From positions 32,001 to 96,000 of IMG/VR virus record IMGVR_UViG_3300028048_000077: a DNA stretch of 64,000 bases, one strand, 5' to 3'. The position numbers were made by a program, and so were the translations under genes. This stretch comes from a virus (lineage: Duplodnaviria; Caudoviricetes). Under the pieces are notes generated by a model. It saw only the letters and a list, made by a program, of their open reading frames with translations. It did no database searches and had not been told where the DNA came from. Numbering within the stretch: the first letter of the stretch is position 1; each line of letters opens with the position of its first letter. Below are positions 6,165 through 47,255 of the stretch, one piece after another.

Positions 6165-6299
6165 AACTATTCCCTCTGCCCTAATTGGGCAGAGGGAGTT
6201 ATTGTGTTAAACTAAATAATTTTAGAGATACTATAAATATGAATAGGGTATAGGTACCAACTATACCCTATTCAATCTCCTAGAAAGGAGGTGTCAAGA

Positions 6300-6419
6300 A
6301 TGGCTAATTTAATAAAGTCATTCATACGTATTAAATCAATTTGGGATTTAATATCCATAGGCGATATGATAATTCAGATAATTGATTTAATACAATATTT
6401 AATAACCCATTCTTTATAG
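6300..6419 (+). CDS. small hydrophobic peptide A (39 aa), type I toxin-like
   Basis: Early motif 6227-6242, 5' hairpin 6241-6273, AGAAAGGAGG SD; MANLIKSFIRIKSIWDLISIGDMIIQIIDLIQYLITHSL. Confidence 0.65.
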   Translation: MANLIKSFIRIKSIWDLISIGDMIIQIIDLIQYLITHSL

Positions 6420-6560
6420 AAAGGTTATTAAGAATATACTTTATAATTAGTCACTAAAAATTTGATTCTAAAAACCAGAAGTATAACTTCATTATTACAT
6501 AGATGATAATCAAACTGGTAAAAAATAAGTGAAATAACTTTCACTTATTTTTTTTTATAA

Positions 6561-6863
6561 TTATAATACATTTTTAAGATAATCAACTATTCTTAATTCT
6601 TCTTCTTCATTATCAGGAGCTATTATATAACCATTAGCATGCCCACAATTAATAAATGGAATAGTCATATATGGTTCTTTTTCATTTATAGGAACAAAAG
6701 TAACATTGAATGTATACTTTTTACTTGTTCTACTATAAATAAGATCAGTAGTATAATGCAAATACTTACTATCTAATAAATTCTCAAGAACCTTATGTTT
6801 CTTTACCAATTCTATAAATTCATTTTCATATCTTAATTTAATAGCATCAAGATTATAAATCAT
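6561..6863 (-). CDS. hypothetical protein
   Basis: 100 aa, AAGGAG SD. Confidence 0.7.
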   Translation of the reverse strand: MIYNLDAIKLRYENEFIELVKKHKVLENLLDSKYLHYTTDLIYSRTSKKYTFNVTFVPINEKEPYMTIPFINCGHANGYIIAPDNEEEELRIVDYLKNVL

Positions 6864-6941
6864 CTTTTAAACTCCTTAATTACTTCCAGATTGAATTATA
6901 TCCATAATTCTTTTTACAAATTCAACTATATTATTTATCTC

Positions 6942-7166
6942 CTAATAATTTGAATATCCTTTCATACAATAGAACTTTATTCCATCCTCTTCTTTATCAT
7001 TTAAAGAAGGTGAATCCAAATTTGTAAAGAAAGCAAATATAATATTTGGATCTTCTTCATCTGGTTTTATAAGAACACATTGTAGCTTCTCAAATTCGCT
7101 CATAGGATTCTCAGCAGATATTATCTGATCTCCTACTGATGGTAATTCATCTAAAGCGTGAATCAT
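6942..7166 (-). CDS. hypothetical protein
   Basis: 74 aa, GAGG SD. Confidence 0.6.
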   Translation of the reverse strand: MIHALDELPSVGDQIISAENPMSEFEKLQCVLIKPDEEDPNIIFAFFTNLDSPSLNDKEEDGIKFYCMKGYSNY

Positions 7167-7199
7167 AGTTTTACCTCTTTCTCAGACTGTTGTTTCAGG

Positions 7200-7583
7200 C
7201 TAAATATGAGTAGGCATTTCCTGCCAATTCTTCTCTGCCCATTTTCCAACAGTATCTAAAATTCTCTTTTTAGCACTTTCAGTTAATACTACAGTTTCTT
7301 CAGATCCTCGTTTTTCTATAAAATATATATTTTCACAAGAATCCATTACAACTTCTTCATACATCAATATAGGACGAATTACTCCTCTTAAAGATCCATG
7401 AGTAATTTTATATCTTGGTGTATCTATTGGTTTATTACCATGGATAACCGAGGATAATGGATACTCAACTATTTGTGGTTTATACTTTTCAATATTTAGC
7501 ATTATAACTGTATAGCTTAATCCTAATTGAAAATAAACTCTCAAATACTTAACTTTGTTAAAATCCATTATCCTCGCCTCCAA
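7200..7583 (-). CDS. hypothetical protein
   Basis: 127 aa ORF; likely start MDFNK after GAGG. Confidence 0.65.
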   Translation of the reverse strand: MEARIMDFNKVKYLRVYFQLGLSYTVIMLNIEKYKPQIVEYPLSSVIHGNKPIDTPRYKITHGSLRGVIRPILMYEEVVMDSCENIYFIEKRGSEETVVLTESAKKRILDTVGKWAEKNWQEMPTHI

Positions 7584-7586
7584 TTA

Positions 7587-7817
7587 TTAAGCTTGAGATA
7601 AGATAGCCTCTATCTCAGCTTTGTCCTCATCGGTATAAGCATCTCTGCTTAATCCCAATAAATCATTACTAGTAATCAGAATATCCTTATACAGGTTTAC
7701 CTGACTATTTAAAAGTCCGTCATTAGCAGAAATAATCATGCTATTATGAGGATTAAATGTTTCCATTGCCCTTTCAGCAAATTCCTGGTTAGTGATATAC
7801 ATTACATTTAAGCAATC
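7587..7817 (-). CDS. RNA polymerase beta' N-terminal subunit, exon 3 (DCLNVMYITNQ...)
   Basis: GAT after the intron terminal G supplies the last Asp of NADFDG^D. Confidence 0.9.
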   Translation of the reverse strand, partial: DCLNVMYITNQEFAERAMETFNPHNSMIISANDGLLNSQVNLYKDILITSNDLLGLSRDAYTDEDKAEIEAILSQA

Positions 7818-8202
7818 CTGAAATCTTCACATATGATACCTTATACATATGCAGTTCTCTTATGAACTTCTCTAGGAGTTCCCTAGAAGCAGAGACTATA
7901 TCTTCATCTCAGAGAGATGCTCCTCCACAGAACTATCGGTTGATAGCTGCTTAGTCGTTGAACGTTCCTTCCATTACCCCATTATCTTTATGAGAAATAT
8001 CTAAGGAAGGCTTCGCTGCTGATTCCCCATTGTAATAGACCTTAGCACCTATATAATATATAGGCTTTTATTTCAGCATAGTCCATCTCTTCACTTGTTT
8101 CTATCTTTCGATTCCTATTTCTAGGCAGAAGAGCTTTAGTAAGTCCCAGCAATTCAAAGGAGTGCATCCACTATGTCACCATAGTAGAGGGCATGATTAC
8201 AT
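7818..8202 (-). mobile_element. group I intron 2 (385 nt, ORF-less) within the NADFDG^D motif
   Basis: Exon ends GGU; P1 GGU|AUG pairs with CAUGCC giving a U-G at the splice site; P10 GUAAUC/GAUUGC; core elements AAUUGCUGGGA, AAUCAGCAGC, GUUCAACGACUA, AAGAUAUAGUC; terminal G. Confidence 0.92.
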
Positions 8203-8316
8203 ACCATCAAAATCTGCGTTCAAACCTGGTAAGACTTGTAGTGGCATAGACATTGTAAATGTGTCATTTATTCCTATACATCTCATACAAAGTATAGAAC
8301 CATACTGTATACTTGG
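8203..8316 (-). CDS. RNA polymerase beta' N-terminal subunit, exon 2 (38 codons, PSIQYGS...GLNADFDG)
   Basis: Manual translation gives the catalytic NADFDG motif in frame between the two introns. Confidence 0.92.
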
Positions 8317-9376
8317 CTTATTTCTTCACATAGTTTAGTTTATCACTATGCAGTTCTCTTATGAACTTCTCTGAGTATTACTCAGAAGGTGAGAGTACAT
8401 CATTATCCTAGAAGATGAGGATATCCAGTGCTGTCCTTCACTTGAAGGCGCATACTCGTTGAATTATTAAAACTTATCCCAAATAACATCTATTTAAATA
8501 ATAAATAGAAATGGGGTATTCAATTATGGCTCTTAGTAAAGTTAAATGTGAACATCCAACTCAAGAACATATGCAAACTGCTAATTATAGATATAGGAAA
8601 AATCTTATCAATAATTTTGGAATGTATCATATTGATGAACAATGGCTTCCTATTATATTAGCTGATATTCAACCTTGGTATTACGTAAGTAATTATGGAA
8701 GAATATATTCTAAATTATATGATTGTATTATTAGAGATAGATTAGTAGGTCATGGTTATAAAATTGTGACCTTACGTACTATATATAATACACCAATAGA
8801 TTGTTTAATTCATCGTATTGAAATGATAACTTTTAATCCTATTCCTAATTATAAGGATATGCAAGTTAATCATATAGATGGAAATAAACTAAATAATCGT
8901 TTATATAATTTAGAATGGTGTACATGTCTTGAAAACATACATCATGCTATCATTAATAATATTTATAATAATATTGGTGAGAATAATGTATGTGCAGTAT
9001 TTACAAATGAACAAGTTCATATAATTTGTAAATGCTTAGAAATGAATTATTCATTTAAAGCCATATGTGATACTTTAAATATTGAATACAATGATAAAAC
9101 TATTTCCAGAATTAATCAAATAAAACGTCATAAAAACTGGAAACAAATTTCATCTCAATATAAGTTTTAACAACTGCTGATTTTCGATTGTTTATAGACC
9201 TTAGCACCTATATATCTCTATATAGGCTTTTATTTCAGCATAGTCCATCTCTTCACTTGTTTCTGACTTTCGTCTCCATTAAGGCAGAAGAGCTTTACGA
9301 GGTCCCAGCAATTCTCTGGATAGTTTTAAGCACAGCATTATTTTATATCTTCTTCTGCTATACCGAACCCAAGTTA
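8317..9376 (-). mobile_element. group I intron 1 (1060 nt) at NRN^PSI, carrying an antisense HNH endonuclease
   Basis: Exon ends AAU; guide ACUUGG-GUUC pairs with GAAU and CCAAGU; core nearly identical to intron 2; P7 GAGUA/UACUC; terminal G at 8317. Confidence 0.9.
8511..9170 (+). CDS. NUMOD4-HNH homing endonuclease (I-HmuI-like), antisense inside intron 1
   Basis: YYVSNYGRI, GYKIVTL, IHR and VNHIDGNKLNNRLYNLEWCT motifs; likely start 8526; AACA-N6-TA at 8485-8496. Confidence 0.9.
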   Translation: MGYSIMALSKVKCEHPTQEHMQTANYRYRKNLINNFGMYHIDEQWLPIILADIQPWYYVSNYGRIYSKLYDCIIRDRLVGHGYKIVTLRTIYNTPIDCLIHRIEMITFNPIPNYKDMQVNHIDGNKLNNRLYNLEWCTCLENIHHAIINNIYNNIGENNVCAVFTNEQVHIICKCLEMNYSFKAICDTLNIEYNDKTISRINQIKRHKNWKQISSQYKF

Positions 9377-10585
9377 ATTCCTGTTTACTAACATTTTTAT
9401 ACCACCAGTATAATCTATCAAATTTTGTATGATTTGTCTTACCATATCATTTGGGAACAATTGAGCTTTATACCATATACTATATGCCTTAGAATACGTA
9501 CAGTTATATGTATGCTTAAGTATATTTACAATAGTCTGTTGTAATAACTCTACTAAAGCATGATATGGTAATTTAATCTCATCAATTCTCAGATTTAAAT
9601 CTGGAACGATAATACTTCTATTGGTAAATGAGCATTTACCTCCGATAAGAAGTCTAATGTTTCCTTTCTTTTGTGCAAGAGTCTTTTCTATCTCTGTATA
9701 AAGAGCATTATATCTATCTTGTAAATCCCACAGCAATGTAGAACGATACTTGAATATATTATACATTGAAAGCTCGTCCTGATTTATTTTTCCTGCTAAC
9801 TTTGCCATGATATTAAAGATAGCATTTGTTCCTTCAAATGTGAATACTCCATTCTCTACTTTGAATGGTCTCATTCCTGTAGAGAATACTGGAATAGCAC
9901 CAGTAAAGATATTCTCTTTATTTTCAATAATCATTTCATATTGATCAATCTTCTTAGTACCATTCTTCTTATGGAAGTACTCTAATATTTCATCGAAATT
10001 CTCTTTAAACTGCAGCATTCCAATTCCAGCATATGTCTTATCTGAATTAGAATGTTTAGTGAACTTCTTTTTATTAGCCATTTTCTTCTTAAATGCTTTT
10101 TTCTCCCAAGAAGTCATCTTAGTACCATTAGTATTCAATTCTACATCTGGTTCTATGATTGCTTGGAGATTATCATTCCCGAAGTATGACTGTATAACTT
10201 TAAATAGATTTGGATGAATAATCTTATATGGCTCTTTTAATTTAATCCATCCAAATATCTCAAAATTATCTCCAATAAACTTGACCTCAGTATGGCAATA
10301 TGGACATATCAATCCTTTCTTATTAATACCTTGCCAAGTTTTACATTCACAAGAAAACTTATCTGCAAATGCATTATCATCTTGCAATGTTTTCATAAAT
10401 CTTTCGGAATAGATAGAGTCTGGAGACTTAAGAGATTTCTTTAATGCTTGTGGCTCTTTAATCAGGAATCCCATTCCTGTAATCAAGTCATTTTGCATCT
10501 CTTTCTCAAGATTCATTCTTACAAGACGAGTTCTGTATTCATATTCATCAGAATACGGATATTGTACTCGTGTATTTACTTGCAT
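9377..10585 (-). CDS. RNA polymerase beta' N-terminal subunit (probably non-virion RNAP), exon 1
   Basis: Zn finger CEC...CPYC, GWIKL, KKGNIRLLIGGKCSFTNRSIIVP (cf. GKRVDYSGRSVI), ends LVNRN; start MQVNT after AAGGAGG; early motif at 10642-10659; spliced product ~517 aa. Confidence 0.9.
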
Positions 10586-10790
10586 AAAAAATATCCTCCT
10601 TTTATTTAATTTTGACTCATTCGAGTGGCCTCCTAATCCACTCATATATATATAGTATATATTTAATTGATATTTTGATCCCGTACCTATATGGTACGGG
10701 ACCATTATCTTATCAAATAATTGTTAAGAAAAAAATATTATTTAAAAAAAGACCCACCATCATATGATGGTGGGGTATGCAGGGGTATAA

Positions 10791-11036
10791 TTAAGATAGA
10801 TCTACAATATAGGCAGTAATATTGTAGGGTTTATCATTTAGTTGAGAAAATATATTTACGGCTCGTACATTTTTAAAATGAGACCACATAGTTCTAGGAA
10901 TCTCTTTTCCATCTATCAAAATAGCTTCTATACGAACTCCTTTATGATTATATTCATCTGGAAGCACATATATAGTTTTCTGTCTCTGTTGAGTTTTTAT
11001 CATTTTTACTTCAATTTCATTTGTCATATAAATCAC
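10791..11036 (-). CDS. hypothetical protein
   Basis: 81 aa, coupled to the upstream gene. Confidence 0.65.
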   Translation of the reverse strand: MIYMTNEIEVKMIKTQQRQKTIYVLPDEYNHKGVRIEAILIDGKEIPRTMWSHFKNVRAVNIFSQLNDKPYNITAYIVDLS

Positions 11037-11038
11037 CT

Positions 11039-12808
11039 TTATTCATCTATAAAGTTTACAGTCAAAACAGAGTCTGGAATACGATCTGCGTAATTATAAC
11101 TACCAGTTAGAACACTTTTAAACGTATTATAATCAGTAAATACTGATCTTCTTACATTATTAAATACTAATGAAGATTCCTCACCTAATACAACATCTCC
11201 AAATAAAGTTCTAATTGAAGAATCCTGATATATACTAAATAAATCAAAATTTAATTTTACTTTAGTTAATGATCTACAACCAGAAAACATTACATACATT
11301 CTATTTACATTTCTTGTATTCCAATTAGAAAGATCTATTTCAGTTAAAGATGTGCATTTATAAAACATATAATCCATAGTTCTTACTTTACTAGTATCCC
11401 AGTTAGATACATCCACAGTAGTTAATGATGAACAGGAGGCAAATACACCATACATAGTTTTTACTTTACTAGTATCCCAATTAGATACATCTACAGTAGT
11501 TAATGATGAACAGTAATTAAATATCTGTTTCATATTTGTGACATTACTTACATCCCAGTTAGATACATCTATATCAGTTAATGATAAACAGTGATCAAAT
11601 GCGAATTCAAAACTAGTAATTGGAGAAGTATCCCAGTTAGAACTATCTATAGAAATTAGATTGCTACAATATGAAAGCATCATATCTGCATTAATAAAAG
11701 TAGTTGTATTATTTAATATTCTTTGAATATCATCATTATATGATTGATCTAATTCAGTTATATTCTTATAATTCGGAATATTTTCATATGCATAATCCTT
11801 TAGATTATTTGAAATTCTATCTTCTAATGGCCTAATATATCCATTTATATATACTTTAATCAGATCAACTATATTCATATTACCATTTATATCTTTATTT
11901 GTTTTTACCGCTTTATCAAGTGTACCATTTAAATCTAAAATTAATTTTGATTTAGTACTTATACTTCCAGTAATATCAGATATACATTTTGCAAAATGCA
12001 CAAAATTTTCCCCATTAATATCTTTTGTTATTTTACGTCCTATATTAACAGTTCCATTTAAATAACTATCAGGAGCTTTTAATACTACTAATAATTTATT
12101 ATTACATATAATATCAATATTATGCTTAGTTGGATAAAATAATCTTAAAGATACTATACAGTTATGTTTAGTAAGGAACCCATCTGGATATAAAGTATTT
12201 ATACATTCTTCTTTAGAAGTTTTTATACATGCAGAATCTATAATCATTCCATTAATATCATTTCCAATAGCATTTTTAATCTTGATAATTTCCTCAGGAA
12301 GATAGTTAAGATAGTTTAATGGAGCATCAGATGGATGTAATCCATGATCACTATTTAGCAATGTAGATAAATTATTAAAATTATATGGTCTACCATTTAA
12401 ATCTGAATAATATACAGCATTTCTATCAGTGTAATTTGAATACAAATCTGTTTTGCTTGAAGTATATACTCTAACAGCGGATCCTATAAGTTTAAATCCT
12501 TTATAATTATTATAGCTATCATTATGAATCATATAATAAAATACTTTGTCCATAGCGTCAAAGTATGAATATTCATTAGTACCAGGATTATAATTTTTCA
12601 CATGTGAATATACACAAAGTATATATTTTAATGGTTTATTTAAAGAGTATGGGTATACATTATTATCTACTTTTTCAAGTGTATATTGAACAAATATTTT
12701 TGGATTGAAAGAACTATTAGAATTTAGTGGTACGCTTAAAGGCGTACCACTCCCTTCATTTATAGTTCCAGAGCCCTGAAGAATAATTTCTCTACCATTA
12801 ATTTGCAT
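11039..12808 (-). CDS. virion-associated protein with BspA/DUF285-type 26-residue leucine-rich repeats
   Basis: C-terminal repeats MFxxCSSLTTVDVSNWDTSKV; N-terminal domain paralogous to 14909..15892. Confidence 0.8.
   Translation of the reverse strand: MQINGREIILQGSGTINEGSGTPLSVPLNSNSSFNPKIFVQYTLEKVDNNVYPYSLNKPLKYILCVYSHVKNYNPGTNEYSYFDAMDKVFYYMIHNDSYNNYKGFKLIGSAVRVYTSSKTDLYSNYTDRNAVYYSDLNGRPYNFNNLSTLLNSDHGLHPSDAPLNYLNYLPEEIIKIKNAIGNDINGMIIDSACIKTSKEECINTLYPDGFLTKHNCIVSLRLFYPTKHNIDIICNNKLLVVLKAPDSYLNGTVNIGRKITKDINGENFVHFAKCISDITGSISTKSKLILDLNGTLDKAVKTNKDINGNMNIVDLIKVYINGYIRPLEDRISNNLKDYAYENIPNYKNITELDQSYNDDIQRILNNTTTFINADMMLSYCSNLISIDSSNWDTSPITSFEFAFDHCLSLTDIDVSNWDVSNVTNMKQIFNYCSSLTTVDVSNWDTSKVKTMYGVFASCSSLTTVDVSNWDTSKVRTMDYMFYKCTSLTEIDLSNWNTRNVNRMYVMFSGCRSLTKVKLNFDLFSIYQDSSIRTLFGDVVLGEESSLVFNNVRRSVFTDYNTFKSVLTGSYNYADRIPDSVLTVNFIDE
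11270..11690 (-). repeat. 78-bp tandem coding repeats (about 5 units)
   Basis: Recurrent tcccagttagatacatc...cagtagttaatgatgaaca at 78-nt spacing. Confidence 0.8.
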
Positions 12809-12831
12809 ATTACTGGACTCCTTCCTTTATT

Positions 12832-14061: not shown

Positions 14062-14074
14062 ACAATCTCACCTC

Positions 14075-14893: not shown

Positions 14894-14908
14894 TTCTTAA
14901 TTCTCCCC

Positions 14909-15892: not shown

Positions 15893-15985
15893 GATTTGTT
15901 TCCCTCCTATAACTAGATAGATGGAGCAGCAAGAGCTGCTCCATATTCTAGTATTTAGCGATTATATCCATAAATGATTTTTAGA

Positions 15986-23824: not shown

Positions 23825-24271
23825 TTGTTTGTTATGTCAAAAATCGAGGAGCATGTAAAGAAGTATTATGAACTTCATGTGGAAAGTAAGGTTAAATCCT
23901 TAGAGAAAAAATTAGATGAATATATTAAATCTAATTTTCCAGATGAATATGAGAAATCTATAAGTGATTTTGAATTATTTGAAGATTCATATGATATCGT
24001 AAAATATTTCGATTTATATTCTCACCTTACTTTTATTCCTAAGCCTTTGAAATGTTCTTTCATGGGTTTTATACCTACTAAAGAAACTAGTAAGAAAGCT
24101 CATGATTATTTATTAAGTATAGTAAAAATGGCTAATTATAAATTTCCTGATTATGATTTTAAGTATCAGATTTCTGATTGTAGGTATAGACCTGTAAATT
24201 GTTCTGAATTCCATGTTGCTATGTTTATTGTAGTAGTACCAAAGGATTATAGAGATCCTAATAGATACTAA
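23825..24271 (+). CDS. hypothetical protein
   Basis: 148 aa, AGGAG SD. Confidence 0.7.
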   Translation: MFVMSKIEEHVKKYYELHVESKVKSLEKKLDEYIKSNFPDEYEKSISDFELFEDSYDIVKYFDLYSHLTFIPKPLKCSFMGFIPTKETSKKAHDYLLSIVKMANYKFPDYDFKYQISDCRYRPVNCSEFHVAMFIVVVPKDYRDPNRY

Positions 24272-24350
24272 AAAAATAAGGGTAGAGATATCTCTACCCT
24301 TAACTTTAAATTAGATACAATTTCATTTTATTTTCCCCTCAAACTAATCC

Positions 24351-24455
24351 CTAAAGGTGTAGAAAGAATTCTACAATAATTTTAATTATAGTTTCTAATA
24401 AGATATCGGCCAATACTTTTATATACTTATTAGAACCTTTAGGTATTGAGGTCAT
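24351..24455 (-). CDS. small hydrophobic peptide B (34 aa), type I toxin-like
   Basis: Early motif 24514-24529, 5' hairpin, AGAAAGGAGA SD; MTSIPKGSNKYIKVLADILLETIIKIIVEFFLHL. Confidence 0.65.
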   Translation of the reverse strand: MTSIPKGSNKYIKVLADILLETIIKIIVEFFLHL

Positions 24456-24606
24456 TTAGATCATCTCCTTTCTGAGGGGATTGGGTAGGATATAGTTCCC
24501 AGCTATATTCTACTCATATTTATAGTATATAACTAAAAATAAATAAATTAACAAAAAAGAAAGGGATGCATTGTATTGCATTCCCAGAGGAATTTGGCAG
24601 CACCCA

Positions 24607-24696
24607 TTAGATCATTTGAATTAAAATTTTTATCAATTCTATTATTAAACTTTGCAGCAAGCCTAATATGAATTGTATGAAAAATTTCATGATCAT
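24607..24696 (-). CDS. small hydrophobic peptide C (29 aa), type I toxin-like
   Basis: Early motif 24768-24783, 5' hairpin, AGAAAGGAGG SD; MIMKFFIQFILGLLQSLIIELIKILIQMI; terminator at 24553-24586. Confidence 0.7.
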   Translation of the reverse strand: MIMKFFIQFILGLLQSLIIELIKILIQMI

Positions 24697-24845
24697 AAGA
24701 GTATACCTCCTTTCTATATGGGTGCATGAGTAGGATATAGACGCACCTAATAATATCTATATCCTACTCATATTTATAGTATATAACTAAAAATAATTAA
24801 TATTACAAAACATATCCCTCTACCCAATTGGGTAGAGGGAATAGT

Positions 24846-33511: not shown

Positions 33512-33534
33512 TATAATTTATATTAAAAGGAGGA

Positions 33535-36473: not shown

Positions 36474-36498
36474 TTTATTATCAAAGGAGACTTTTATC

Positions 36499-36978: not shown

Positions 36979-37003
36979 GAATCCTTAAAGGAGGAAGCAA
37001 TTA

Positions 37004-37423
37004 ATGGCTGAAGAAAAAGAAGTTCTTTGTAAAGAACTGCCATCTAAAGTGAATGAATTAGTATTGGCATTCCCAGGGGTATTTGGTGCATTGATGAATT
37101 ATCAGAATATGTCTCCAGAGTTCTTTGAATTTTTTAAGGAAACTATTGATAAACTTTCTGATTTAGGAATCATTATAATTGAGGATGATGAAAAAGATCC
37201 TAAGCGTAAATCTCTCCAGGTCAAAGTGTGTGAGGTTATTAATCAGGCTGAGGAACTCGACGTAATCATCAAAGATATTGATGAGCATATTAAGGCTGAA
37301 ATGGAAGAAGCTCGTAAGAGATTTGAACTCCAGACTGGCATTAAACAGGAAAAGAAAACCGAAAGTGGTATTGTTCTTCCTGGTTCTATGCCTTCTGGTC
37401 CAGCTCCTAAGATTATCGTTTAA
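37004..37423 (+). CDS. hypothetical protein ending in a KTESGIVLPG motif (GroES mobile-loop-like)
   Basis: 139 aa, AAAGGAGG SD. Confidence 0.65.
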   Translation: MAEEKEVLCKELPSKVNELVLAFPGVFGALMNYQNMSPEFFEFFKETIDKLSDLGIIIIEDDEKDPKRKSLQVKVCEVINQAEELDVIIKDIDEHIKAEMEEARKRFELQTGIKQEKKTESGIVLPGSMPSGPAPKIIV

Positions 37424-37506
37424 TAATTTCTCCCTCTACCGAAAGGTAGAGGGAGTTATTGTATACCAGTTCGACATTTCGATAATCATATAAAGGAGGA
37501 AGAGAT

Positions 37507-40500: not shown

Positions 40501-42108
40501 AATAAGAAATCATCTGAGTTTTCTATCAAACAATCTGCTGTAGTAGATGCTATACTAAAGGATCCAACTGCTAGTGATCTTAGTATTCTGAATCCATTAC
40601 TTGAGATTGAGGCTACAAATGCAGTTTCATTTAAGGGATTATCTGGTATGAACTCTGAACGAAGCTACTCACTTGATAAGCGTATTTATGATGAGAGTAT
40701 GCTTGGAGTTATTGGAACTTCTACAGGTTTTTCTGGTAATGTAGGTATTACTAGACAGGCTACTGTAGATTCTAGTATTGCTAATACTAGAGGATTCATT
40801 AAACAGAATAAGGGGGATAAACTTAATACTCTTAATATGCTTACTGCTACTGAGGCTATGACTCCATTCATGACTACTCATGATGATGCAATGCGTATAG
40901 CAATGGGTTATATTCAGACTTCTAAACATCAGATGAGAACTAAGAGATCTTCTCCTAACTTGGTTACTACTGGTATGGATGAAGCTATTCCATATATGAC
41001 TTCTAATTTCTTCTCATATAAATTTAGAGGAAAGAAAGGAAAAGTAATCTCTGTATCAGATAAGTTCATAGTATATGAAGATACTGAGACTAAAGAAAGA
41101 GGATTCGTAGATCTGGAAGAAAAGACTATGAAGAACTCTGATGGTGGTTTCTATGTAACTCTTAGACTTAAGCCAAATGTTAAGAAAGGTCAGATTCTTA
41201 ATAATAATGATATCTTAGCATATGATCCAACTTGTTATTCTAAACAGGTTGGAAATGAAGAAGGTAATGGAGTTTCTTATAATGTAGGAACTATGGCTAA
41301 GATTGCTATTATGACTACAGATGAAGCATTCAATGATTCTACTGTAATTACTAATACATTATCTGAATCCATGAGCTCTGATTATTGTGTAGAGAAAGCT
41401 AGATATCTTCCTAAGGATACAAATATCTATCATCTTGTACAAAAGGGAATGGAAATTCAAGAGGGTGAACCTCTTATGATATTCCAGAATGCATTTGAAG
41501 AGAAAGATGCTAATACATTATTAAATTCTATTACAGATGCAGATGTAGAAGCTGTAAGTGATCTTGGACGTATTCATGTTCGTAGTAAGCTTACTGGTGT
41601 AGTACAAGATATTAAAATATTCCGTACTTGTGAATTAGATGAACTTTCTCCTTCTTTAAGAAAACTCGTAACTACATATGAGAATAGAATTAAGAAAGAG
41701 AAGGCTGAACTTAAGAAAATGGGAGTACAGAATGTAGAAGGATTACTTGATCCAGACTACAAATTAGAGGCTCAGGGTAAACTTAAGGATTGTTTAGATG
41801 GAGTAAAGATATTTGTTTATATTAAGTGCCATGATAGTATGGGCGTAGGAGATAAACTTGTATTCTCAACAGCACTTAAAGGTGTAATCAAAACTGTTAT
41901 TCCAGAAGGACAAGAACCATATACAGACTTTAGACCTAATGAAAAAGTAGAAGCATTACTTACTACAGCAGGTGTAAATGCTCGAATGGTTGGTAGTATA
42001 ATTCTTAATGGTTTGATTAATAAGATTCTTATAGAAACTGATAGAAAGTGTAAAGAGAATCTTGGAATCAAATGGAAGAATCTATATGAAATAGAAGAGA
42101 ATCAATAA
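37507..42108 (+). CDS. RNA polymerase beta subunit (likely virion RNAP) with ~600 aa N-terminal extension
   Basis: LDVPKFIDNRFMMLRG..QGQL, NPLLEIE..SFKGLSG, HDDAMRIAMG, AFNDS, GDKL...KGVI, GVNARM; late-type promoter at 37473. Confidence 0.9.
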   Translation: MAVFLDNLKYMRLYRTQIYLPVKMESRKTGSLIFLLSNNPNTASLLMNHPKTININSFISYYVEKNVNLYLNESTKYWGLEESISAKERREIPADQFGLPEERKYPLDTPEHVRSAIKLFGHCEEDKKHQLAVRIMKAAKKFNIEIKEDTEVYKYAHMKSIKEEMLEEEVNYEYNSPSLITPNTGSITEQYMTYNVDNHTYRTFFDEDIDSLLETTDMKLRKILYAGRIKNNKEQLLIYDKIKGMHPNIKYTYLTLDKYKAKNLFVDTSHYLSDFANKNTYKLDIGLNLYAKLLSKLFNDNRYMQNGYTKFTIFVDVDEVYKDDATSYDFRKDINILSLINRYLILRKDLKSVLPHDIVFFSKNAYFKVNVADLDKTNLIKFKMFIKKLKTNDIDDSEYTNKDSQEVLVTKFADKLEKRGISLDNLSKTEKFANWSIKNIVNPGMHIDTDSKKKELVEKIHTAAEKSSTEEELEKNIEDQNTEDEVMDIIQDLESEDSGVNVSKARATRMSTLNQKFRGKKFNGKTIAEYLNTEQKDIPKDNIPIDSINEDWKEVHFSKFNETYDLDNDIISIFNSMTDKSAPIAILDIDKEDKVTSEDYLETWTVKFEDVDGKRHTIKLDVPKFIDNRFMMLRGNYKTIQGQLMLLPVIKTGPDTSQIVSNYNKIFIRRYNPSNGSKTTRKMSILTKILDKYDGKTFKVSIGDNDLICQKYELPIEYQDLATSYSRIEFNDGSFISFNLDEMYELRDKTKSSFSIVSSIPLYYNAKLKKVRSVDMHIAPNILNILEDHARSNVDKELLELIANTKPSQKLSYTTASILNTEIPVIVVMAFSEGLQKSMEKAHITYKFSETRPPKEDKRPYIKFKDGYLQYDDTVDASILMNGLQYVDTGFYSIKDINEKDMWIDALDNFGGRIKADGLDNFYDLMIDPITKEICELYKLPTDYVSILAYASALLVDTKYNKHTDITGNRYRTKELIAGYVYKTLATSYGIYQSTRKKNKKSSEFSIKQSAVVDAILKDPTASDLSILNPLLEIEATNAVSFKGLSGMNSERSYSLDKRIYDESMLGVIGTSTGFSGNVGITRQATVDSSIANTRGFIKQNKGDKLNTLNMLTATEAMTPFMTTHDDAMRIAMGYIQTSKHQMRTKRSSPNLVTTGMDEAIPYMTSNFFSYKFRGKKGKVISVSDKFIVYEDTETKERGFVDLEEKTMKNSDGGFYVTLRLKPNVKKGQILNNNDILAYDPTCYSKQVGNEEGNGVSYNVGTMAKIAIMTTDEAFNDSTVITNTLSESMSSDYCVEKARYLPKDTNIYHLVQKGMEIQEGEPLMIFQNAFEEKDANTLLNSITDADVEAVSDLGRIHVRSKLTGVVQDIKIFRTCELDELSPSLRKLVTTYENRIKKEKAELKKMGVQNVEGLLDPDYKLEAQGKLKDCLDGVKIFVYIKCHDSMGVGDKLVFSTALKGVIKTVIPEGQEPYTDFRPNEKVEALLTTAGVNARMVGSIILNGLINKILIETDRKCKENLGIKWKNLYEIEENQ

Positions 42109-42145
42109 AACTTTCCCCTACCCTTAATTGGGTAGGGGATATTTC

Positions 42146-42815
42146 TTATTTTATTCCATATAATTCATTATCACTTTCTAAAGTAATTCCTGGTCCTAAT
42201 TCATTCATAAATAATTTAGTATTATCTACTGTAAAATTTCCATCTATTAAACATTCATCTGCAAAGAATATATCTCCAACTGTATAATTGAAATTAAAAT
42301 CTCCAGCATTTCCATATAACCATCCATGAATCATCATTATATTATAAATATTATTTGAATTATTATATGAATATAAAAAATTTCCATCCAAATACCATTT
42401 ATATATATTATTATTACAAGTTACAGTTATATTATATATAATATTTGTTTTTATAGAAATATTAGTATTATAATGCAAATCACCAATATTTCCACTCCAA
42501 CCCCATATATACATAATACCATTATATATTCTTATTGCAAGTGTTCCATAATCAGAAAATTGTATCCAAAGTGTATCAACATATTGACCTACTCTATCTA
42601 CTAAAAATTTATAATTTAGTGTAAAATTAGTTACATTTCTGATATTAATATATTTATACGTTCCATCATTAAAATTATCTTTAGCTTTATAATATAAACC
42701 GTCTATATTTGAATTAAGAGGTTTAATATCATCATAGGGTTCGCTAAATTTTATGTAATCTCCCCCCCCCGATTACTACTTTTCCATTATTAACGAATAC
42801 TCTATCAAAAGTCAT
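42146..42815 (-). CDS. LamG/ConA-lectin-like virion protein, phase-variable, OFF state (G9 tract at 42762-42770)
   Basis: ATG at 42815 after AGGAGG (MTFDRVFVNNGKVVIGGG) stops 6 codons after G9; G8 or G11 gives a continuous ~222 aa frame; WYLDG; C-terminus LESDNELYGIK. Confidence 0.8.
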
Positions 42816-42885
42816 AATATATTCCTCCTATTATACTAATTACTTATTTGTAGCAAAAAAAAACAAAAGAGTAAGTAGAATAGGG

Positions 42886-43587
42886 GTGAATAATATGATA
42901 AATAGAAGTATTATAGAATTATGTTTAAGACGTAATTCGGGGGGGGGGTACTATAATGTAGTGAATAATACAAGTTATTCATTCGTTAATGGTTCAAGCT
43001 TACCATACCCTTCTGACTATAAAATTCGTCCAGAATGTACAATAGATTTAAGAAGTGGAGAAACTGGAATAAATTTAAATAGTTATAAAATAAATAATAA
43101 AACTATATGTTTTTGGATAAAGGATACAAGTACGTATAGTGGAAATGGTGGAGTAATATTTAGCAATTTTAATTTAATGATTAAAAATAATACATTATAT
43201 ATTTTAAATGCTCCAGCATCTGGAACAGTTACATTATGCAGTCATGATTTTACTAAATGGACTTTTGTTGAAATATATGCAATAAATAATGGTAGTAGTT
43301 CTGTAAAAAATATTACATTATTTATAAATGGAACAAAAATAGGAACTTTTACTATTTATTATAATAATACATGGGATTATTATGGTGAAAGTATAAAATA
43401 TATTGGGTATTTTAGTTTAGGGAGCAATAAATTTAATTTTAATGGAATATTATCAGATGTATGTATAATTAATGGAAGATATCATACTGATGGTTATAAA
43501 ATTCCAAGTTATTATTTAAATCATTCATTATATGATAATATAAAATTTTATTTATTATATGAATCAAATGATAATATATATGGGTAA
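42886..43587 (+). CDS. LamG/ConA-lectin-like virion protein, phase-variable, ON state (G10 tract at 42939-42948)
   Basis: TICFWIK, WTFVEI, LFING, FNGILSDVCI LamG motifs; C-terminus YESNDNIYG; AACA-N6-TA at 42863. Confidence 0.8.
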   Translation: MNNMINRSIIELCLRRNSGGGYYNVVNNTSYSFVNGSSLPYPSDYKIRPECTIDLRSGETGINLNSYKINNKTICFWIKDTSTYSGNGGVIFSNFNLMIKNNTLYILNAPASGTVTLCSHDFTKWTFVEIYAINNGSSSVKNITLFINGTKIGTFTIYYNNTWDYYGESIKYIGYFSLGSNKFNFNGILSDVCIINGRYHTDGYKIPSYYLNHSLYDNIKFYLLYESNDNIYG

Positions 43588-43636
43588 TAAAAAAGAAAAT
43601 CCCTACCCAATAAGGGTAGGGATATTTTTATTATTA

Positions 43637-43840
43637 TTAATCACAGTAAGTTCTAGAGCATTTAGGACATCCAGTAATTAAAGTTTCTGCTGCTTCCTCT
43701 TTTGTATACTGATCACTTCCAGTACCAAAAATAGTATGTCCACAGCTCCAGCACACACCATCTTTAGGAGCAAAATATGGAGCCTTAAGCTTTACACATA
43801 ACTTTTTCTGCTCTTCAATACATTCTTCGATATAACTCAT
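43637..43840 (-). CDS. small Zn-ribbon protein
   Basis: CWSC...CPKC, AAGGAGG SD. Confidence 0.75.
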   Translation of the reverse strand: MSYIEECIEEQKKLCVKLKAPYFAPKDGVCWSCGHTIFGTGSDQYTKEEAAETLITGCPKCSRTYCD

Positions 43841-43853
43841 AAACTATTCCTCC

Positions 43854-45041
43854 TTATACTCCATATTTAATATAAAACTCTATTAATTTAGCTTTATACT
43901 CTTCATATCCAATTCCAGCATATCCAATTATTATATGATATAATTCTGATCTATGCCCTTCTGTATTATTCAATATTTTTTCTATTAAATCAAAAACTTC
44001 CTTTAAACAGAACATATATTGATTTATCATATTATTATACATAGAATTAAGATATGATTCTTTTGATTCTTCTTCCTCAGCTAATTTTCTTTTCTTTTCT
44101 TCAAATATTTTTCTTATATAATTATCTGTTTCAATTCTGTTACGTTTTTCCCTCTCTTCTATAATTCTTTTTAGTTTTTCCTCCTCTTCTTTAATCCTTT
44201 TTAGTTTTTCTGCTCTCTTTTTAATTAATTTTTCCTGGCATTCTTTAAATGCCTTTCTAAAAATATTTTTCTCTTCTTCAGATAAATATTTAAAAGGTCT
44301 TAAAAATCTTTCTAATTCTCTATTATTATTTTCATCAAGTTGTTTTCTTAATAATATTCTTCTTTTCGCATCAATTTCCTTTCTTTTATCTAATAATTCT
44401 TTATAATACTCATTTGTATGATTTAAATTAATTTTTAAAGAATAGTCTTCTAAAACTCTTTTATCATTATTAATTTTAGATGGATCATCATCAACCAAAT
44501 CCATAAAATCTAATAACCATTTACCTCTAGTAGGATGCCTAAGTTTTCTTAATGCTTTAGCTTCAATTTGCCGTATTCTTTCTTTTGATACTCCAAAATG
44601 TTTTCCAGTATTTTCCAAAGTTTCCATATTATCTAAAAATCTATACTTTAAAACATTCTTTTCTCTATCATATAAAGTATCAAGTATTATATGTATTCTT
44701 GCATTATATTCTTCTTTACAAATATCATTTATCATAACATCTTCAGTATAATAAACATCATCTATTAATTCAGATATGTACTCATTTTCTTTTAATAAAT
44801 TTCTTTTATACTTTGATACATTTCTATTTATTAAAAGATTAATAAACTGAGCTGGATAGTTATTCTTTAAACCACCTTTCTCTATAAGCTCTTCAACAAT
44901 ATTTTCAAATATATCTTCAGATACATCTGAATACTCTGGAAAATGAGAATCAATATATCCTATAACTTTATCTTTAAAGATATTATAAGAATCGATATCT
45001 CCTTCCATCATTCCATTAACAATTTTAGCATACGATTTCAT
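43854..45041 (-). CDS. sigma70-like protein (RpoD-type region 4, degenerate region 2) with C-terminal coiled coil
   Basis: [30 protein letters not shown]; early motif 45114-45129. Confidence 0.8.
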
Positions 45042-45225
45042 AGCTACTCCTCTCCTCTTTAAAACAAAAACTTAGTAAATTTTATAGGGAGTAGCATTTA
45101 AGCTACTCCCTATTCATATATATAGTATATAATTAAAAAATATTTTACACCATCTATCCCTGTACCCAACTAAGGGTACAGGGATAAATAGTTTTGAAAA
45201 AAGAAAAGCATGAAAATTACAGTAC

Positions 45226-45582
45226 TTATATGTTATTTAATGATAATAATCTATCTACGTCTTTATCTGTATAACCATCCCAGTGCTTAGCCTTAGGAAT
45301 CTCTTTACAGTCAAATAAGTTCCAATACTTATTCTCATAATGATATCCATATGCTCCTTTTGGAGTTTCAATGGTTACTAAGAACCAACCACCACCAAAG
45401 CAATCTTCACCGTCTTCATGCTTCTTAGTCTTCCAGGCTAACTCTTTATGAGAATTTACAATAGTAGCAAATAAAATACATCTCTGAAGATATAAATCAT
45501 TGAATGAATGAAATCCATCATCTACATCTCCAATATCATCTACACCTGCAATATCACAAATCTTCTTATATTTATCTTCCAT
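45226..45582 (-). CDS. conserved phage protein (DGFHSFNDLY / WDGY motifs)
   Basis: Motifs common in small phage hypothetical proteins. Confidence 0.7.
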   Translation of the reverse strand: MEDKYKKICDIAGVDDIGDVDDGFHSFNDLYLQRCILFATIVNSHKELAWKTKKHEDGEDCFGGGWFLVTIETPKGAYGYHYENKYWNLFDCKEIPKAKHWDGYTDKDVDRLLSLNNI

Positions 45583-45603
45583 AAATTATTACTCCTTTTA
45601 TCT

Positions 45604-45882
45604 TCAAGTACTTCTTTTTATTGCTTCATTTAAAGCGTCTTTATTTAATTTATAAATTTGTTTATGTAATGGTGTTACTTCATTTCTATTTATATTATTC
45701 TCTTCAATTTCTTGATTAAGATACTCTAATATTCCTTGTCTACAATCTATTTGATTAGTACCAGGTTTATATTCTTCTTGACAAATATTAATAATATTTT
45801 TTGTACAGTAGTTACATGTATTTTCTAATCTCCATTTTAAAAGCTCTTCTGGGGAAGATGCTATTTTCTGCCATCTCTTCAT
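45604..45882 (-). CDS. hypothetical Cys-containing protein
   Basis: 92 aa, CNYC, AGGAGG SD. Confidence 0.7.
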   Translation of the reverse strand: MKRWQKIASSPEELLKWRLENTCNYCTKNIINICQEEYKPGTNQIDCRQGILEYLNQEIEENNINRNEVTPLHKQIYKLNKDALNEAIKRST

Positions 45883-45938
45883 TTATACCCCTCCTAAAAA
45901 AGAAAGTCTCTCTACTCATAAGAGTAGAGAGAAAATTC

Positions 45939-46031
45939 TTAGTTATCTTTCTTCTTCAAACCAAGCATAACCAGGTTAAATACTACGATGCCAACAATAG
46001 CACCAGTTAAAAGGATTACAAGATCACCCAT
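45939..46031 (-). CDS. 30 aa single-TM peptide
   Basis: MGDLVILLTGAIVGIVVFNLVMLGLKKKDN, GAGG SD, followed by terminator at ~45905-45932. Confidence 0.6.
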   Translation of the reverse strand: MGDLVILLTGAIVGIVVFNLVMLGLKKKDN

Positions 46032-46051
46032 ATTATCTTACCTCTTTTCTA

Positions 46052-46582
46052 TTATTTATTCTCAATCCATGCTGGGCAAGGAGCAGTAACTTTAAGAGAC
46101 TCATAGGCTCCAACTTTGCTCATGCCACGGCCATAGATCTTCTTACCATTACTATCAATACCTACAACCTTAGGGAATGGACGAGAAGATGCTTCAATCT
46201 CTTTAAGCTCAATTGCTACATTGCTCTTCTCACGGCCACCCATAGCAATTTTACGACCAGTGTGTACATAAGAGTTTACAAACTCCTTACTGATGTTTAC
46301 CATGTTCTCAGCTTCAGAAGTTCCAAACTCATAGTTTACTGCAAGTGCATCAGCTTCAGTGTTACTAATGCCAGCAGAGTGCTGAAGAACAGAGGAAACA
46401 ATCTGCTTAGCAGATTCAGCAGGACAATACTCACCAGTCTTACCAGACTTGTCATAGACAGCTACTTTGTAAGAAGTGTCATTGAGCATAGCCTTCATTA
46501 CACGAACTTCGTCCTTCTTAGAGGAACTCTTCTGAGTAAGATTAGTCTTAATCTCGTTAATCAACTTTTCAACTTTTTCCAT
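46052..46582 (-). CDS. hypothetical protein, possibly DNA-binding
   Basis: 176 aa, AGGAGG SD, late-type promoter at ~46620-46633. Confidence 0.65.
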   Translation of the reverse strand: MEKVEKLINEIKTNLTQKSSSKKDEVRVMKAMLNDTSYKVAVYDKSGKTGEYCPAESAKQIVSSVLQHSAGISNTEADALAVNYEFGTSEAENMVNISKEFVNSYVHTGRKIAMGGREKSNVAIELKEIEASSRPFPKVVGIDSNGKKIYGRGMSKVGAYESLKVTAPCPAWIENK

Positions 46583-47028
46583 TTTAGAAACCTCCTATAT
46601 ATGCATATATAATGGAACCATTATAACTAAGTCTATTGCTTAGTAACTTTTAACTCATCTAATCCTATTGGTTTCAATGCTTTCACGTCAATTGGAGTGG
46701 ATTTTAAATCTATTTCACCCTCTTTTAACATTTCATTCTCTTTTAATTTCCTTGGTTTTATATTTTTCTCGTTCATCTTCAGTCAAATGGAAGAATACCT
46801 TAGGTAATTTTCCATGTTTTCCTTTCTCTAGAAGAAGTTTATCGAAATCTTCTCTAGAATATTTACATATCTCTTTAAAGAATTCTGTAGGCTTTGGCAT
46901 AGCTTCACCACCTTCATTATATTATTGGCAAGGGTTTAGAAAAGTATTTTAAGATAACAAAAAAGAAAGGGAAGCATTGTATTGCTTTCCCTTGAGGAAT
47001 TACAAGCCAGTATGTTGGTGATATGATG

Positions 47029-47109
47029 CTAGAAAATTAAGAATTTTATCAATTCTATTATCAGACTTTCGATTAAGCCCAATATGAATTGTATTAAAAT
47101 CTTCATCAT
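47029..47109 (-). CDS. small hydrophobic peptide D (26 aa), paralog of C, type I toxin-like
   Basis: MMKILIQFILGLIESLIIELIKFLIF; early motif 47177-47192, 5' hairpin, AGAAAGGAGG SD; terminator nearly identical to that of C. Confidence 0.7.
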   Translation of the reverse strand: MMKILIQFILGLIESLIIELIKFLIF

Positions 47110-47255
47110 ATCATTAACCTCCTTTCTGCTGGCGTGAATAGGGTATAGAGTAGTTGGTGAAGAAGCTATACCCTATTCATATCTATAGTATATAACTAAA
47201 AATAGTTAGTTTATCAGTATAAATCCCTCTACCCAAATGGGTAGAGGGAAATGTT

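Follow-up and report, generated by a model that had tools for sequence, protein, structure and literature searches.

Micropeptide cassettes with a common 5' module in a large rumen phage: candidate strain-variable accessory micro-genes

A large rumen phage carries five micropeptide cassettes, A to E, each with a promoter of phage type. On balance, we favour the reading that the phage, which has its own multisubunit RNA polymerase (RNAP), carries them as accessory micro-genes that are transcribed independently and vary between strains, and that their peptides act on the membrane. The cassette ORFs are probably translated, judging from sequence comparisons, into hydrophobic helical peptides of 26-39 residues.

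The window analysed here, a stretch of 64,000 nt, belongs to a linear record of 128,771 bp with a CheckV completeness of ~52%; given this length and completeness, the label of jumbo phage is plausible. RNAP beta-like subunits are encoded by the phage, and no integrase was found in the fragment (the 128,771-bp record, ~52% complete). The original prediction described four dispersed cassettes, and A, B, C and D are indeed in place with all the parts ascribed to them (Table 1), while the count of four proved incomplete, with a fifth cassette, E, lying beyond the window.

Table 1. Positions of the cassette parts and of an associated sRNA-like unit (window numbering unless stated)
Feature	Position	Strand	Remarks
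Terminator-type hairpin CCCTCTGCCC..GGGCAGAGGG 5' of A	6169..6199	+	First half of composite terminator/promoter module
A promoter motif	6227..6242	+	One mismatch vs consensus
A 5'-terminal leader hairpin	6240..6274	+	14-bp stem
A SD AGAAAGGAGGTG	6282..6293	+	Predicted pairing with UCUCCU immediately 5'
A ORF	6300..6419	+	39 codons + stop; predicted single alpha-helix
B terminator hairpin	24277..24302	-	Common to convergent gene 23825-24271
B ORF	24351..24455	-	34 codons + stop
B SD AGAAAGGAGATG	24462..24473	-	
B 5' hairpin	24482..24516	-	Two stem mismatches
B promoter motif	24514..24529	-	Immediately 3' of C terminator
C 3' UTR	24553..24606	-	Closing-helix 3' arm + intrinsic terminator with T-run
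C ORF	24607..24696	-	29 codons + stop; paralog of D; conserved in L021/L022
C SD AGAAAGGAGGT	24705..24715	-	
C 5'-terminal hairpin	24727..24770	-	16-bp stem
C promoter motif	24768..24783	-	Motif search
Conserved terminator hairpin 5' of C	24815-24840		32 nt from C promoter
D 3' UTR	46959..47028	-	Closing-helix arm CUGGC; intrinsic terminator at end
D ORF	47029..47109	-	26 codons + stop
D SD AGAAAGGAGGT	47117..47127	-	
D 5'-terminal hairpin	47135..47179	-	14-bp stem
D promoter motif	47177..47192	-	Motif search
Conserved terminator hairpin 5' of D	47224-47249		32 nt from D promoter
sRNA-like unit, two anti-SD boxes	55115..55226	+	Same promoter class as cassettes
Cassette E	Genome 112033-112340 (outside window)		ORF 32 codons

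The promoter motif TATACTATAnATATGA is found at cassettes A-D, with one mismatch in A (G for T at the first base). The genome-wide search that had been proposed for it returned 17 sites in the window where 1.9 would be expected, a number reached by 0 of 100 shuffles, and 25 sites in the whole 128.8-kb record when at most one mismatch was allowed. The conserved element is ~16 nt long and AT-rich, with no conserved -35, and the polymerase that recognises it is probably that of the phage itself rather than the host's with sigma-70. Genes for RNase H, an RNAP subunit and a protein with a sigma-70 region 4 are served by the same promoter class, as are sRNA-like units that contain no ORF; solely from the genes served, we infer early timing. 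The motif is thus the general promoter of the phage and not specific to cassettes, and relatives keep it 5' of orthologous genes. Promoter and 5' hairpin, originally taken as hallmarks of the cassettes, turned out to be generic to the phage lineage and conserved in relatives.

All five cassettes share a homologous 5' module of ~135 nt, composed of a terminator hairpin, the promoter, a 5' hairpin and a very strong Shine-Dalgarno (SD) sequence, with a mean column identity of 71% in the alignment of A-E. The conserved terminator hairpin occurs in 20 copies, seven of which are followed by a promoter at +18 to +33 nt, and these seven pairs include those 5' of A, C, D and E; the distance from hairpin to promoter is 30 nt in A. 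The 5' hairpins begin at the TGA of the motif, with stems of 13-16 bp (two mismatches in B). The hairpin of A has a free energy of -20.6 kcal/mol and pairs from nt 1 of the predicted RNA, and that of C differs from those of A and D by two compensatory pairs. Among the 25 motif sites, 15 give predicted transcripts that pair from nt 1-4, and the first 45 nt of the 25 transcripts have a median dG of -7.8 kcal/mol, compared with -4.0 kcal/mol for random 45-mers (p = 6e-6). Transcripts of ordinary genes and of sRNA-like units are among the majority with a hairpin at the predicted +1, and the 5'-terminal hairpin is a leader feature of the whole promoter class. The SD of the cassettes reads AGAAAGGAG(G/A), and the ATG lies 8-11 nt 3' of it in A-D. 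Three of the five genomic copies of the 11-mer AGAAAGGAGGT are at cassettes, and when 124 start regions are ranked by their pairing with a 16S-tail-like sequence, the top three are D, A and C.

The predicted mRNAs are strongly folded in silico, with z-scores of -8.8 (A), -5.2 (B), -7.6 (C), -6.2 (D) and -6.8 (E). In the predicted folds, the leaders of B, C, D and E pair with sequence beyond the stop codon to form a closing helix, and in that of A the SD and AUG are covered by local hairpins. The 3' arm of the closing helix of C pairs with the leader segment GCACCCAU, and one segment of the D 3' UTR is complementary to the start-codon region of D. A consensus fold of C, its ortholog in relatives and D contains 62 pairs, of which eight are compensatory, located in the 5' hairpin, closing helix, start-region helix, ORF hairpin and terminator; the closing and start-region helices are thus maintained through compensatory changes among the three sequences.

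Comparison with close relatives revealed gain and loss. The frame conservation on which the coding claim was to be judged was seen in one lineage: L021/L022 keep the frame of C. Elsewhere the ORF was deleted with its 5' module kept, or the cassette was absent or replaced. B in L021/L022 is reduced to a remnant that lost the ORF and retained the 5' module, and in L024 the promoter, hairpin and SD are joined directly to the terminator tail, with no ORF. An unrelated 45-codon ORF occupies the same slot in L019/L020, the slot is empty in L023 and the P0130 contig, and L025/L026 are without cassette A. Since cassettes are kept, truncated, deleted or replaced among close relatives, they behave like strain-variable accessory micro-genes resembling PeSL-type modules (see below).

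The original prediction of Ile/Leu-rich peptides of 26-39 residues held up well: the ORFs look translated and their products are very hydrophobic, with 50-73% ILFVM and a net charge of -1 to +1 across the five. An AF2 model of A, the one peptide modelled, gave a single helix over residues 2-38 (pLDDT 88), and an independent ENA contig has a gene call for a peptide identical to A. Being neutral and short with few charged helix residues, the peptides may resemble TisB. In B, C and D, polar residues are spaced at intervals of three to four positions, and A and E show no significant amphipathic pattern; amphipathicity is borderline at p = 0.04-0.11 across A-D and not significant in E. The proposal that C and D are paralogs was borne out by a mean column identity of 83% and by near-identical terminators one compensatory pair apart. 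In leave-one-out profile searches C and D retrieved each other (E = 0.005 and 0.02, rank 5), whereas A, B and E, at ranks 142, 63 and 8 with E-values of at least 0.57, were not retrieved by the other peptides. A single paralogous peptide family A-E was therefore not supported; C and D are the only demonstrable paralogs, with A, B and E alike in composition alone, so that the coding status of A, B and E rests on SD, ATG, open frame and composition.

Could the cassettes instead be structured non-coding RNAs, their ORFs by-products of AT-rich fold-back sequence? ORF-less units share the promoter, the 5' module outlives the ORF in L024 and in the B remnant of L021/L022, and A, B and E have no protein-level homology; moreover, every ORF is itself a long fold-back hairpin, and RNA-level constraint could explain part of the ORF conservation. 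We nevertheless consider this reading very unlikely, given the substitution pattern. The C and D ORFs differ at 16 sites, distributed 6/1/9 over the codon positions (P = 0.0095 under random placement), so second positions are spared, and the codon changes are four synonymous, six conservative and one radical, with no stop. Between C and D, the ORF hairpins have loops of differing sequence that still encode Leu-(Leu/Ile)-(Gln/Glu). Against its ortholog in L021/L022, the best conserved transcribed segment of C is the ORF, with 74 of 78 positions identical (95%; three synonymous changes and one Ile-to-Val), compared with 58-74% for the leader and 3' UTR. In addition, each of the five units combines a near-perfect SD at optimal spacing with an ATG and an open frame; frames this long after the ATG have p = 0.05-0.14 each in composition-matched sequence, for a joint chance of ~4e-5 if four units are taken as independent. 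That the ORFs are Ile/Leu-rich leader peptides whose translation controls read-through of the next terminator, as in attenuation, seems extremely improbable: short ORFs of this kind do precede terminators in C and D and take part in predicted alternative pairings, but no gene in the same orientation lies downstream of A or B, the sole unit after C is B, and the predicted folds of C and D contain no antiterminator alternative overlapping the terminator stem.

If the peptides are made, they might also act in the cytoplasm, as hydrophobic helices that bind and block a protein of the host or of a defence system (anti-defence, host takeover). We regard this as rather unlikely. Strain variability, multiple copies and a promoter class that also serves RNase H and RNAP genes fit an arms-race pattern, the peptides are neutral and not cationic, and the polar stripe of B, C and D could be a helix-helix interface; however, with a GRAVY of 1.9-2.0 (maximum 1.98) and 72-73% ILFVM, free C and D peptides would be insoluble. 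A true type I toxin-antitoxin system, with an undetected cis-antisense RNA or a trans-acting anti-SD sRNA as antitoxin, is in our view distinctly unlikely. The peptides are small (26-39 aa, where type I toxins have < ~60 aa), hydrophobic and helical, and the mRNAs are in silico end-paired with the ribosome-binding site and start occluded, like hok and tisB (PMC4147584). The sRNA-like unit at 55115-55226 contains an exact complement of the SDs of A (12/12), D (12/12) and C (11/11), its second box matches the variant SD of B (11/11), and this 11-mer occurs in the genome only in that box and in B; in pairing with the unit, D, A and C hold the first three places among 124 start regions, and B is 9th. 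A role of the unit as a trans regulator of the cassettes is speculative. Box 1 is a copy of the 16S 3' tail and would pair with strong SDs in general, such as the one of the RNase H gene, and the E start region ranks 111 of 124, in a window offset from the ATG. A search opposite the cassettes for phage-type and sigma-70-type antisense promoters found none of either: no opposite-strand site of the phage motif lies at any cassette, and sigma-70-like sites, graded as unenriched, numbered 3, 6 and 5 against shuffle expectations of 6.3, 3.8 and 4.4. Rfam gave no toxin or antitoxin RNA family match. The profile comparison with type I toxin families likewise came out negative, with no Pfam match at E up to 10, no PHROGs match and a single NCBIfam match, to a PSM-alpha model, below threshold (E = 0.17; 12 bits vs a cut-off of 33). 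The proposed likeness to Fst/Ldr-type membrane toxins thus survives for size, hydrophobicity and, in the model of A, helix, and fails at the level of family profiles; the type I reading would be one of resemblance rather than of shown membership. Finally, no integrase was found in the fragment, and hence nothing points to a resident replicon in need of an addiction function.

In the accessory micro-gene reading that we favour, each unit would lie behind a composite module of a conserved terminator hairpin, a ~30-nt spacer and a phage-specific AT-rich promoter. Transcription would most likely start at the G of the terminal TGA, and the RNA would therefore open with a stable 5'-terminal hairpin which, together with the longest SDs of the genome, may act as a 5' stabiliser of the Firmicute type (aprE-type stem-loop, STAB-SD). 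Translation would yield neutral, very hydrophobic alpha-helical peptides of 26-39 residues, and pairing around each frame, with partial occlusion of SD and AUG, may restrain or time it. The peptides would most likely enter the host membrane, either oligomerised or in association with a membrane protein, and could there alter membrane function during infection. The repeated terminator/promoter module may offer homology for recombination, which would explain the gain, loss, truncation and replacement of cassettes between close relatives.

Several known systems resemble parts of this arrangement. Phenol-soluble modulins and delta-toxin-type peptides are likewise short, neutral, amphipathic helices that lack a signal peptide, but the cassette peptides are much more hydrophobic and their sole match is the sub-threshold PSM-alpha one. 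Type I toxin mRNAs such as hok, tisB and fst (PMC4147584, PMC2887945) similarly encode a hydrophobic helical peptide of <40 codons in a compact RNA whose leader pairs with its 3' end, as predicted here, and whose SD or AUG is occluded; the cassettes differ in showing no detected cis-antisense gene and no sequence or RNA-family match, and their carrier fragment shows no lysogeny gene. Among the 5' mRNA stabilisers of Firmicutes, the aprE leader stem-loop and the cryIIIA STAB-SD (cited in PMC3997798) have a comparable stem-loop at the extreme 5' end and an SD with extended 16S rRNA complementarity, and in hbs, a small gene with high expression, mRNA stability is linked to translation through pairing of the 5' and 3' UTRs (PMC5737220). 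Here, by contrast, these features belong to a phage promoter class that serves many genes and sRNA-like units. The early promoters of AR9-type virion RNAPs, AAATATATATTAT-(6N)-G+1, and the phiKZ-like ones are also extended, AT-rich and highly conserved, with dozens of copies per genome and a fixed G start, predicted in our case, a few bases downstream (PMC5312081); the sequence here is different, TATACTATAnATAT-G. The PeSL (promoter-early stem-loop) cassettes of T4-type phages are regulatory modules (PMC2839356, PMC4122927) with a strong sigma-70-like promoter for host RNAP, in contrast to the long, AT-rich, phage-specific promoter without -35 found here, and the module described here extends further, to take in a near-perfect SD and a conserved hairpin at the 5' terminus of the RNA. 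As in PeSL, a compact unit combining a terminator stem-loop with an early promoter is repeated across the genome and flanks small non-essential ORFs of unknown function, and it is precisely at these sites that insertion, deletion and replacement occur between close relatives.

Reading of the three regions that hold cassettes A, B, C and D showed the same parts in the same order in each, namely the promoter motif TATACTATAnATATGA, a hairpin whose 5' arm begins within the TGA of that motif, a purine-rich Shine-Dalgarno (SD) sequence, AGAAAGGAG(G/A), an ATG 8-11 nt downstream of it and an open frame, and the four units have the coordinates and architecture that the original prediction had described. 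Cassettes C and D end in an intrinsic terminator with a T-run, the 3' end of B is a hairpin common to B and a convergent gene, and no obvious terminator was found for A in the region read. A fifth unit, cassette E, has the same promoter and 5' hairpin, the SD GAAAGAAGGTG and an Ile/Leu-rich ORF. The cassettes are very probably genuine micro-genes that encode hydrophobic helical peptides on mRNAs of a type I-toxin-like design, and are best read as a set of early accessory micropeptide genes resembling the promoter-early stem-loop (PeSL) cassettes of T4-type phages. The linear virus record (128,771 bp, 30% G+C; bases 32001-96000 are the window) encodes multisubunit RNA polymerase subunits, and no integrase was found in this fragment, which is about 52% complete according to CheckV. 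The phage DNA is present in bovine gut, pig gut and bioreactor metagenomes.

Coordinates of the cassettes and other features (window positions unless marked as genome or as a relative)
Feature	Position	Strand	ORF (codons)	Remark
Cassette A	6227-6419	+	39	
Cassette B	24351-24529	-	34	
Cassette C	24553-24783	-	29	
Cassette D	46960-47192	-	26	
Cassette E	genome 112033-112340		32	outside window
sRNA-like units	54947-55226	+	none	
sRNA-like unit with boxes 1 and 2	55115-55226		none	
sRNA-like unit	genome 100620-100730	+	none	window coordinate 68620, outside window
Conserved hairpin copy	2902-2924			
Conserved hairpin copy	6172-6196			
Conserved hairpin copy	24816-24839			
Conserved hairpin copy	42114-42139			
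Conserved hairpin copy	45158-45183			
Conserved hairpin copy	47225-47248			
Conserved hairpin copy	52868-52890			
Conserved hairpin copy	55237-55261			
Long leader	2640-2868	-		
Part of 589-aa gene	11072-11705			
Apparent variants in C	24654-24658			
Sigma-70 region 4 protein	43854-45041	-		395 aa
SD-led small ORF	45939-46031	-	30	
Two-segment ORF	L014:8880-9026	-	48	distant relative
ORF in C/B slot	L019:10120-10340; L020:1515-1735		45	relatives
Hairpin unit	L025:1500-1607	-		relative

In each of the five units a near-perfect SD stands at the optimal distance from the ATG, and D, A and C are the top three of 124 start regions in predicted pairing with a 16S-tail-like sequence. The sequence AGAAAGGAGGT occurs five times in the record: three copies belong to cassettes A, C and D, another lies at the RNase H gene, and the fifth is the complement, within an sRNA-like unit. 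ATG-led frames this long have p = 0.05-0.14 each in composition-matched sequence, and about 4e-5 jointly for four independent units. Between the ORFs of C and D, 16 of the 75 aligned bases are different, spread 6/1/9 over the codon positions; four of the codon changes are synonymous, six conservative and one radical, none creates a stop, and a pattern this good arose in 0.95% of random-placement trials. In two relatives from independent samples (L021/L022; neighbouring protein 93% identical), 74/78 positions of the C ORF are conserved, with three synonymous changes and one Ile-to-Val, and a stop three codons earlier makes the frame as long as that of D; the leader, 3' UTR and terminator of C are only 58-74% identical there. 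Frame conservation among relatives, which the original prediction had proposed as a check, holds in part, the C frame being kept in L021/L022 and the ORF lost or replaced elsewhere. Because the cassette ORFs are also long fold-back hairpins, their conservation may be partly at the RNA level. Judged from these patterns, C and D are in all likelihood translated, and the same may be said with somewhat less assurance of A, B and E.

In a leave-one-out test, A, B and E were missed by profiles built from the other peptides; demonstrable paralogy is limited to C and D, as had been claimed for this pair, and a single five-member protein family A-E was rejected on the same test. Apparent contig variants within C are not variants, as the paralogous D had been aligned onto C. 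Elsewhere in the window, metagenome contig depth over part of a 589-aa gene reaches several hundred times that of neighbouring bins, with many loose ends, and this part is therefore a repeat or domain that many other genomes in the samples have.

The cassette peptides are 50-73% Ile/Leu/Phe/Val/Met and carry a net charge between -1 and +1; in B, C and D the polar residues are spaced three to four positions apart, and the AlphaFold model of peptide A is one helix over residues 2-38 (pLDDT 88). Amphipathic moments reach borderline significance in A-D (p = 0.04-0.11) and fall short of it in E. We infer that the peptides probably act at the membrane. The proposed likeness to the Fst/Ldr family was not borne out, as no toxin family in Pfam, NCBIfam or PHROG matched, no other family there did so and a lone PSM-alpha alignment was below threshold. 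A five-peptide profile run against 1.84 billion proteins (representatives) matched A itself alone and found nothing in five related IMG/VR records, the ESM Atlas gave no usable match, and blastn of D against 50,697 phage records returned none. A separate SD-led ORF after a 176-aa gene (45939-46031) has a product with one transmembrane segment of the classical type and a Lys-rich tail, a small membrane protein of another kind.

The promoter and the 5' hairpin, originally taken as hallmarks of the cassettes, turned out to be generic to the phage. The motif occurs at 17 sites in the window, where 1.9 are expected, and at 25 sites in the whole record (at most one mismatch), where it precedes genes for RNase H, an RNA polymerase subunit, a sigma-70 region 4 protein and several proteins of unknown function, as well as three ORF-less sRNA-like units. 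The sigma-70 region 4 protein, itself behind the motif and a 5' hairpin, has this region as its sole match (E = 1e-16), and region 2 was not detected in it. The motif is kept before orthologous genes in metagenomic relatives (flanking proteins 62-97% identical) and is present in more distant IMG/VR phages of 95-290 kb; the exact promoter-plus-hairpin pattern had 0 matches in IMG/VR, and matches to a shorter pattern led only ordinary genes. No -35 element was found with the motif, which in form, long and AT-rich, is like the early promoters of the AR9 virion RNA polymerase, AAATATATATTAT-(6N)-G+1 (PMC5312081). On this basis, the predicted transcription start is placed at the G of the final TGA.

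Counted from that G, 15/25 predicted RNAs are paired from nucleotides 1-4, and the first 45 nt have a median of -7.8 kcal/mol vs -4.0 for random 45-mers (p = 6e-6), making the hairpin a leader feature of the whole class; relatives carry other hairpin sequences at the same place behind the promoter. The simplest reading is that it would serve as a 5' stabiliser. Firmicute mRNAs are guarded against 5'-end-dependent decay by a 5' stem-loop and a strong SD. Studies of such stabilisers (Hambraeus 2002, Agaisse and Lereclus 1996, Hue 1995) are cited in PMC3997798. One promoter copy (2640-2868) is separated from the next SD-led gene by a leader of about 224 nt, whose first bases pair with a AGAGAGAT/ATCTCTCT arm that is complementary to them and lies over 100 nt further downstream. 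In a distant relative (L014), the same promoter and a leader hairpin precede an ORF with two hydrophobic segments, and in the lineage this promoter may often serve genes for small membrane proteins.

A conserved G+C-rich hairpin, CCCTCTACC(C)-loop-(G)GGTAGAGGG, is present in 20 copies at gene ends in the record, mostly with no clear T-run, and probably serves the phage's own RNA polymerase as its terminator signal. The promoter follows 18-33 nt after 7/20 copies, including those before A, C, D and E, and E is flanked by copies on both sides. Aligned over all five units, the 135-nt 5' module from this upstream hairpin to the SD has 71% mean column identity.

All five predicted transcripts are much more stable than shuffles (z-scores: A -8.8, B -5.2, C -7.6, D -6.2, E -6.8). 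In the predictions for B, C, D and E, a helix links the leader just 5' of the SD with sequence just past the stop codon; the start-codon region of C and D is paired with sequence around or beyond the stop; in A, the SD forms pairs with the adjacent upstream UCUCCU, and a local hairpin contains the AUG. Of the 62 pairs in the consensus fold of C, its ortholog and D, 8 show compensatory double changes (5' hairpin 2, closing helix 3, start-region helix 1, ORF hairpin 1, terminator 1). These predicted folds share the architecture of type I toxin mRNAs, with the ribosome-binding site sequestered and the ends paired as in hok (PMC4147584); they are also like the 5'/3'-UTR pairing of hbs, an ordinary gene and a case of mRNA stabilisation in Firmicutes (PMC5737220).

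The type I toxin-like resemblance stands for the small hydrophobic peptide and the predicted mRNA design; a search for two features that define a type I system found neither a gene for a cognate RNA antitoxin nor homology to a known family. On the strands opposite the cassettes, the phage promoter motif was not found and sigma-70-like sites were no commoner than in shuffles, and Rfam gave no match at gathering thresholds and noise only below them. A circuit acting in trans would have an early sRNA of a lytic phage (55115-55226) gate translation of the micropeptide mRNAs through their long SDs and release membrane-active peptides at a set time. The three sRNA-like units each have the same promoter, 5' hairpin and a strong terminator; the one at 54947 carries CTCCTTTC, and the candidate sRNA holds CACCTCCTTTCT (box 1), a copy of the 16S rRNA 3' tail complementary to the SDs of A (12/12), D (12/12) and C (11/11), and CATCTCCTTTC (box 2), a one-base variant of that copy complementary 11/11 to the variant SD of B, an 11-mer with no further copy in the record. 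Any strong SD would be a partner for box 1, and the match of box 2 is only suggestive, expected by chance about 1 time in 33 given one deviation per sequence. We consider the circuit quite unlikely; if true, the cassettes would be phage-borne toxins and the antitoxin a ribosome mimic. A relative (L025) has a promoter copy followed by a long hairpin with TCTCCTTT in its loop, which may be another anti-SD sRNA. Other roles were rejected: an arbitrium-type signalling peptide, for want of a signal sequence and of a nearby receptor gene; holin, spanin or single-gene lysis, the peptides being too short, with no charged tail and the wrong promoter class; and an attenuator leader peptide, as nothing lies downstream of A and B.

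Genes of 26-39 codons escape phage annotation, and the five cassettes, read as PeSL-like micropeptide genes, would add hydrophobic early peptides to a poorly known rumen phage lineage with its own RNA polymerase. Should the peptides perturb membranes, superinfection exclusion, host shut-off and lysis timing would be candidate roles for them. The mRNA design (5'-terminal hairpin, the genome's strongest SDs, closed reading frame) could be reused as an expression module, and poses the question of why translation must be restrained.

Among relatives, the slots are in mixed states. L021/L022 keep C, and their B has a degenerate promoter, an intact hairpin and SD, and an ORF down to seven codons; in L024 (neighbouring protein 95% identical) the promoter, hairpin and SD are joined straight to the terminator tail, with no ORF and no B. 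In L019/L020 (88%), an unrelated, non-hydrophobic ORF stands behind the same conserved hairpin and promoter; this ORF is charged, with no 5' hairpin and with its own terminator. L023 (72%) has no cassette, contig P0130 (76%) no room for one, L025/L026 (90% for A's neighbour) lack A, and L002-L004 (83% for D's neighbour) have no space for D. These states indicate that the cassettes are accessory genes with rapid turnover, which always takes place where a terminator meets a promoter, a clear case outside the T4 group of a repeated terminator/promoter module that moves and exchanges tiny genes. PeSL cassettes in T4-type phages behave in the same way (PMC2839356, PMC4122927); unlike there, the promoter here is phage-specific and the module reaches into the RNA leader.
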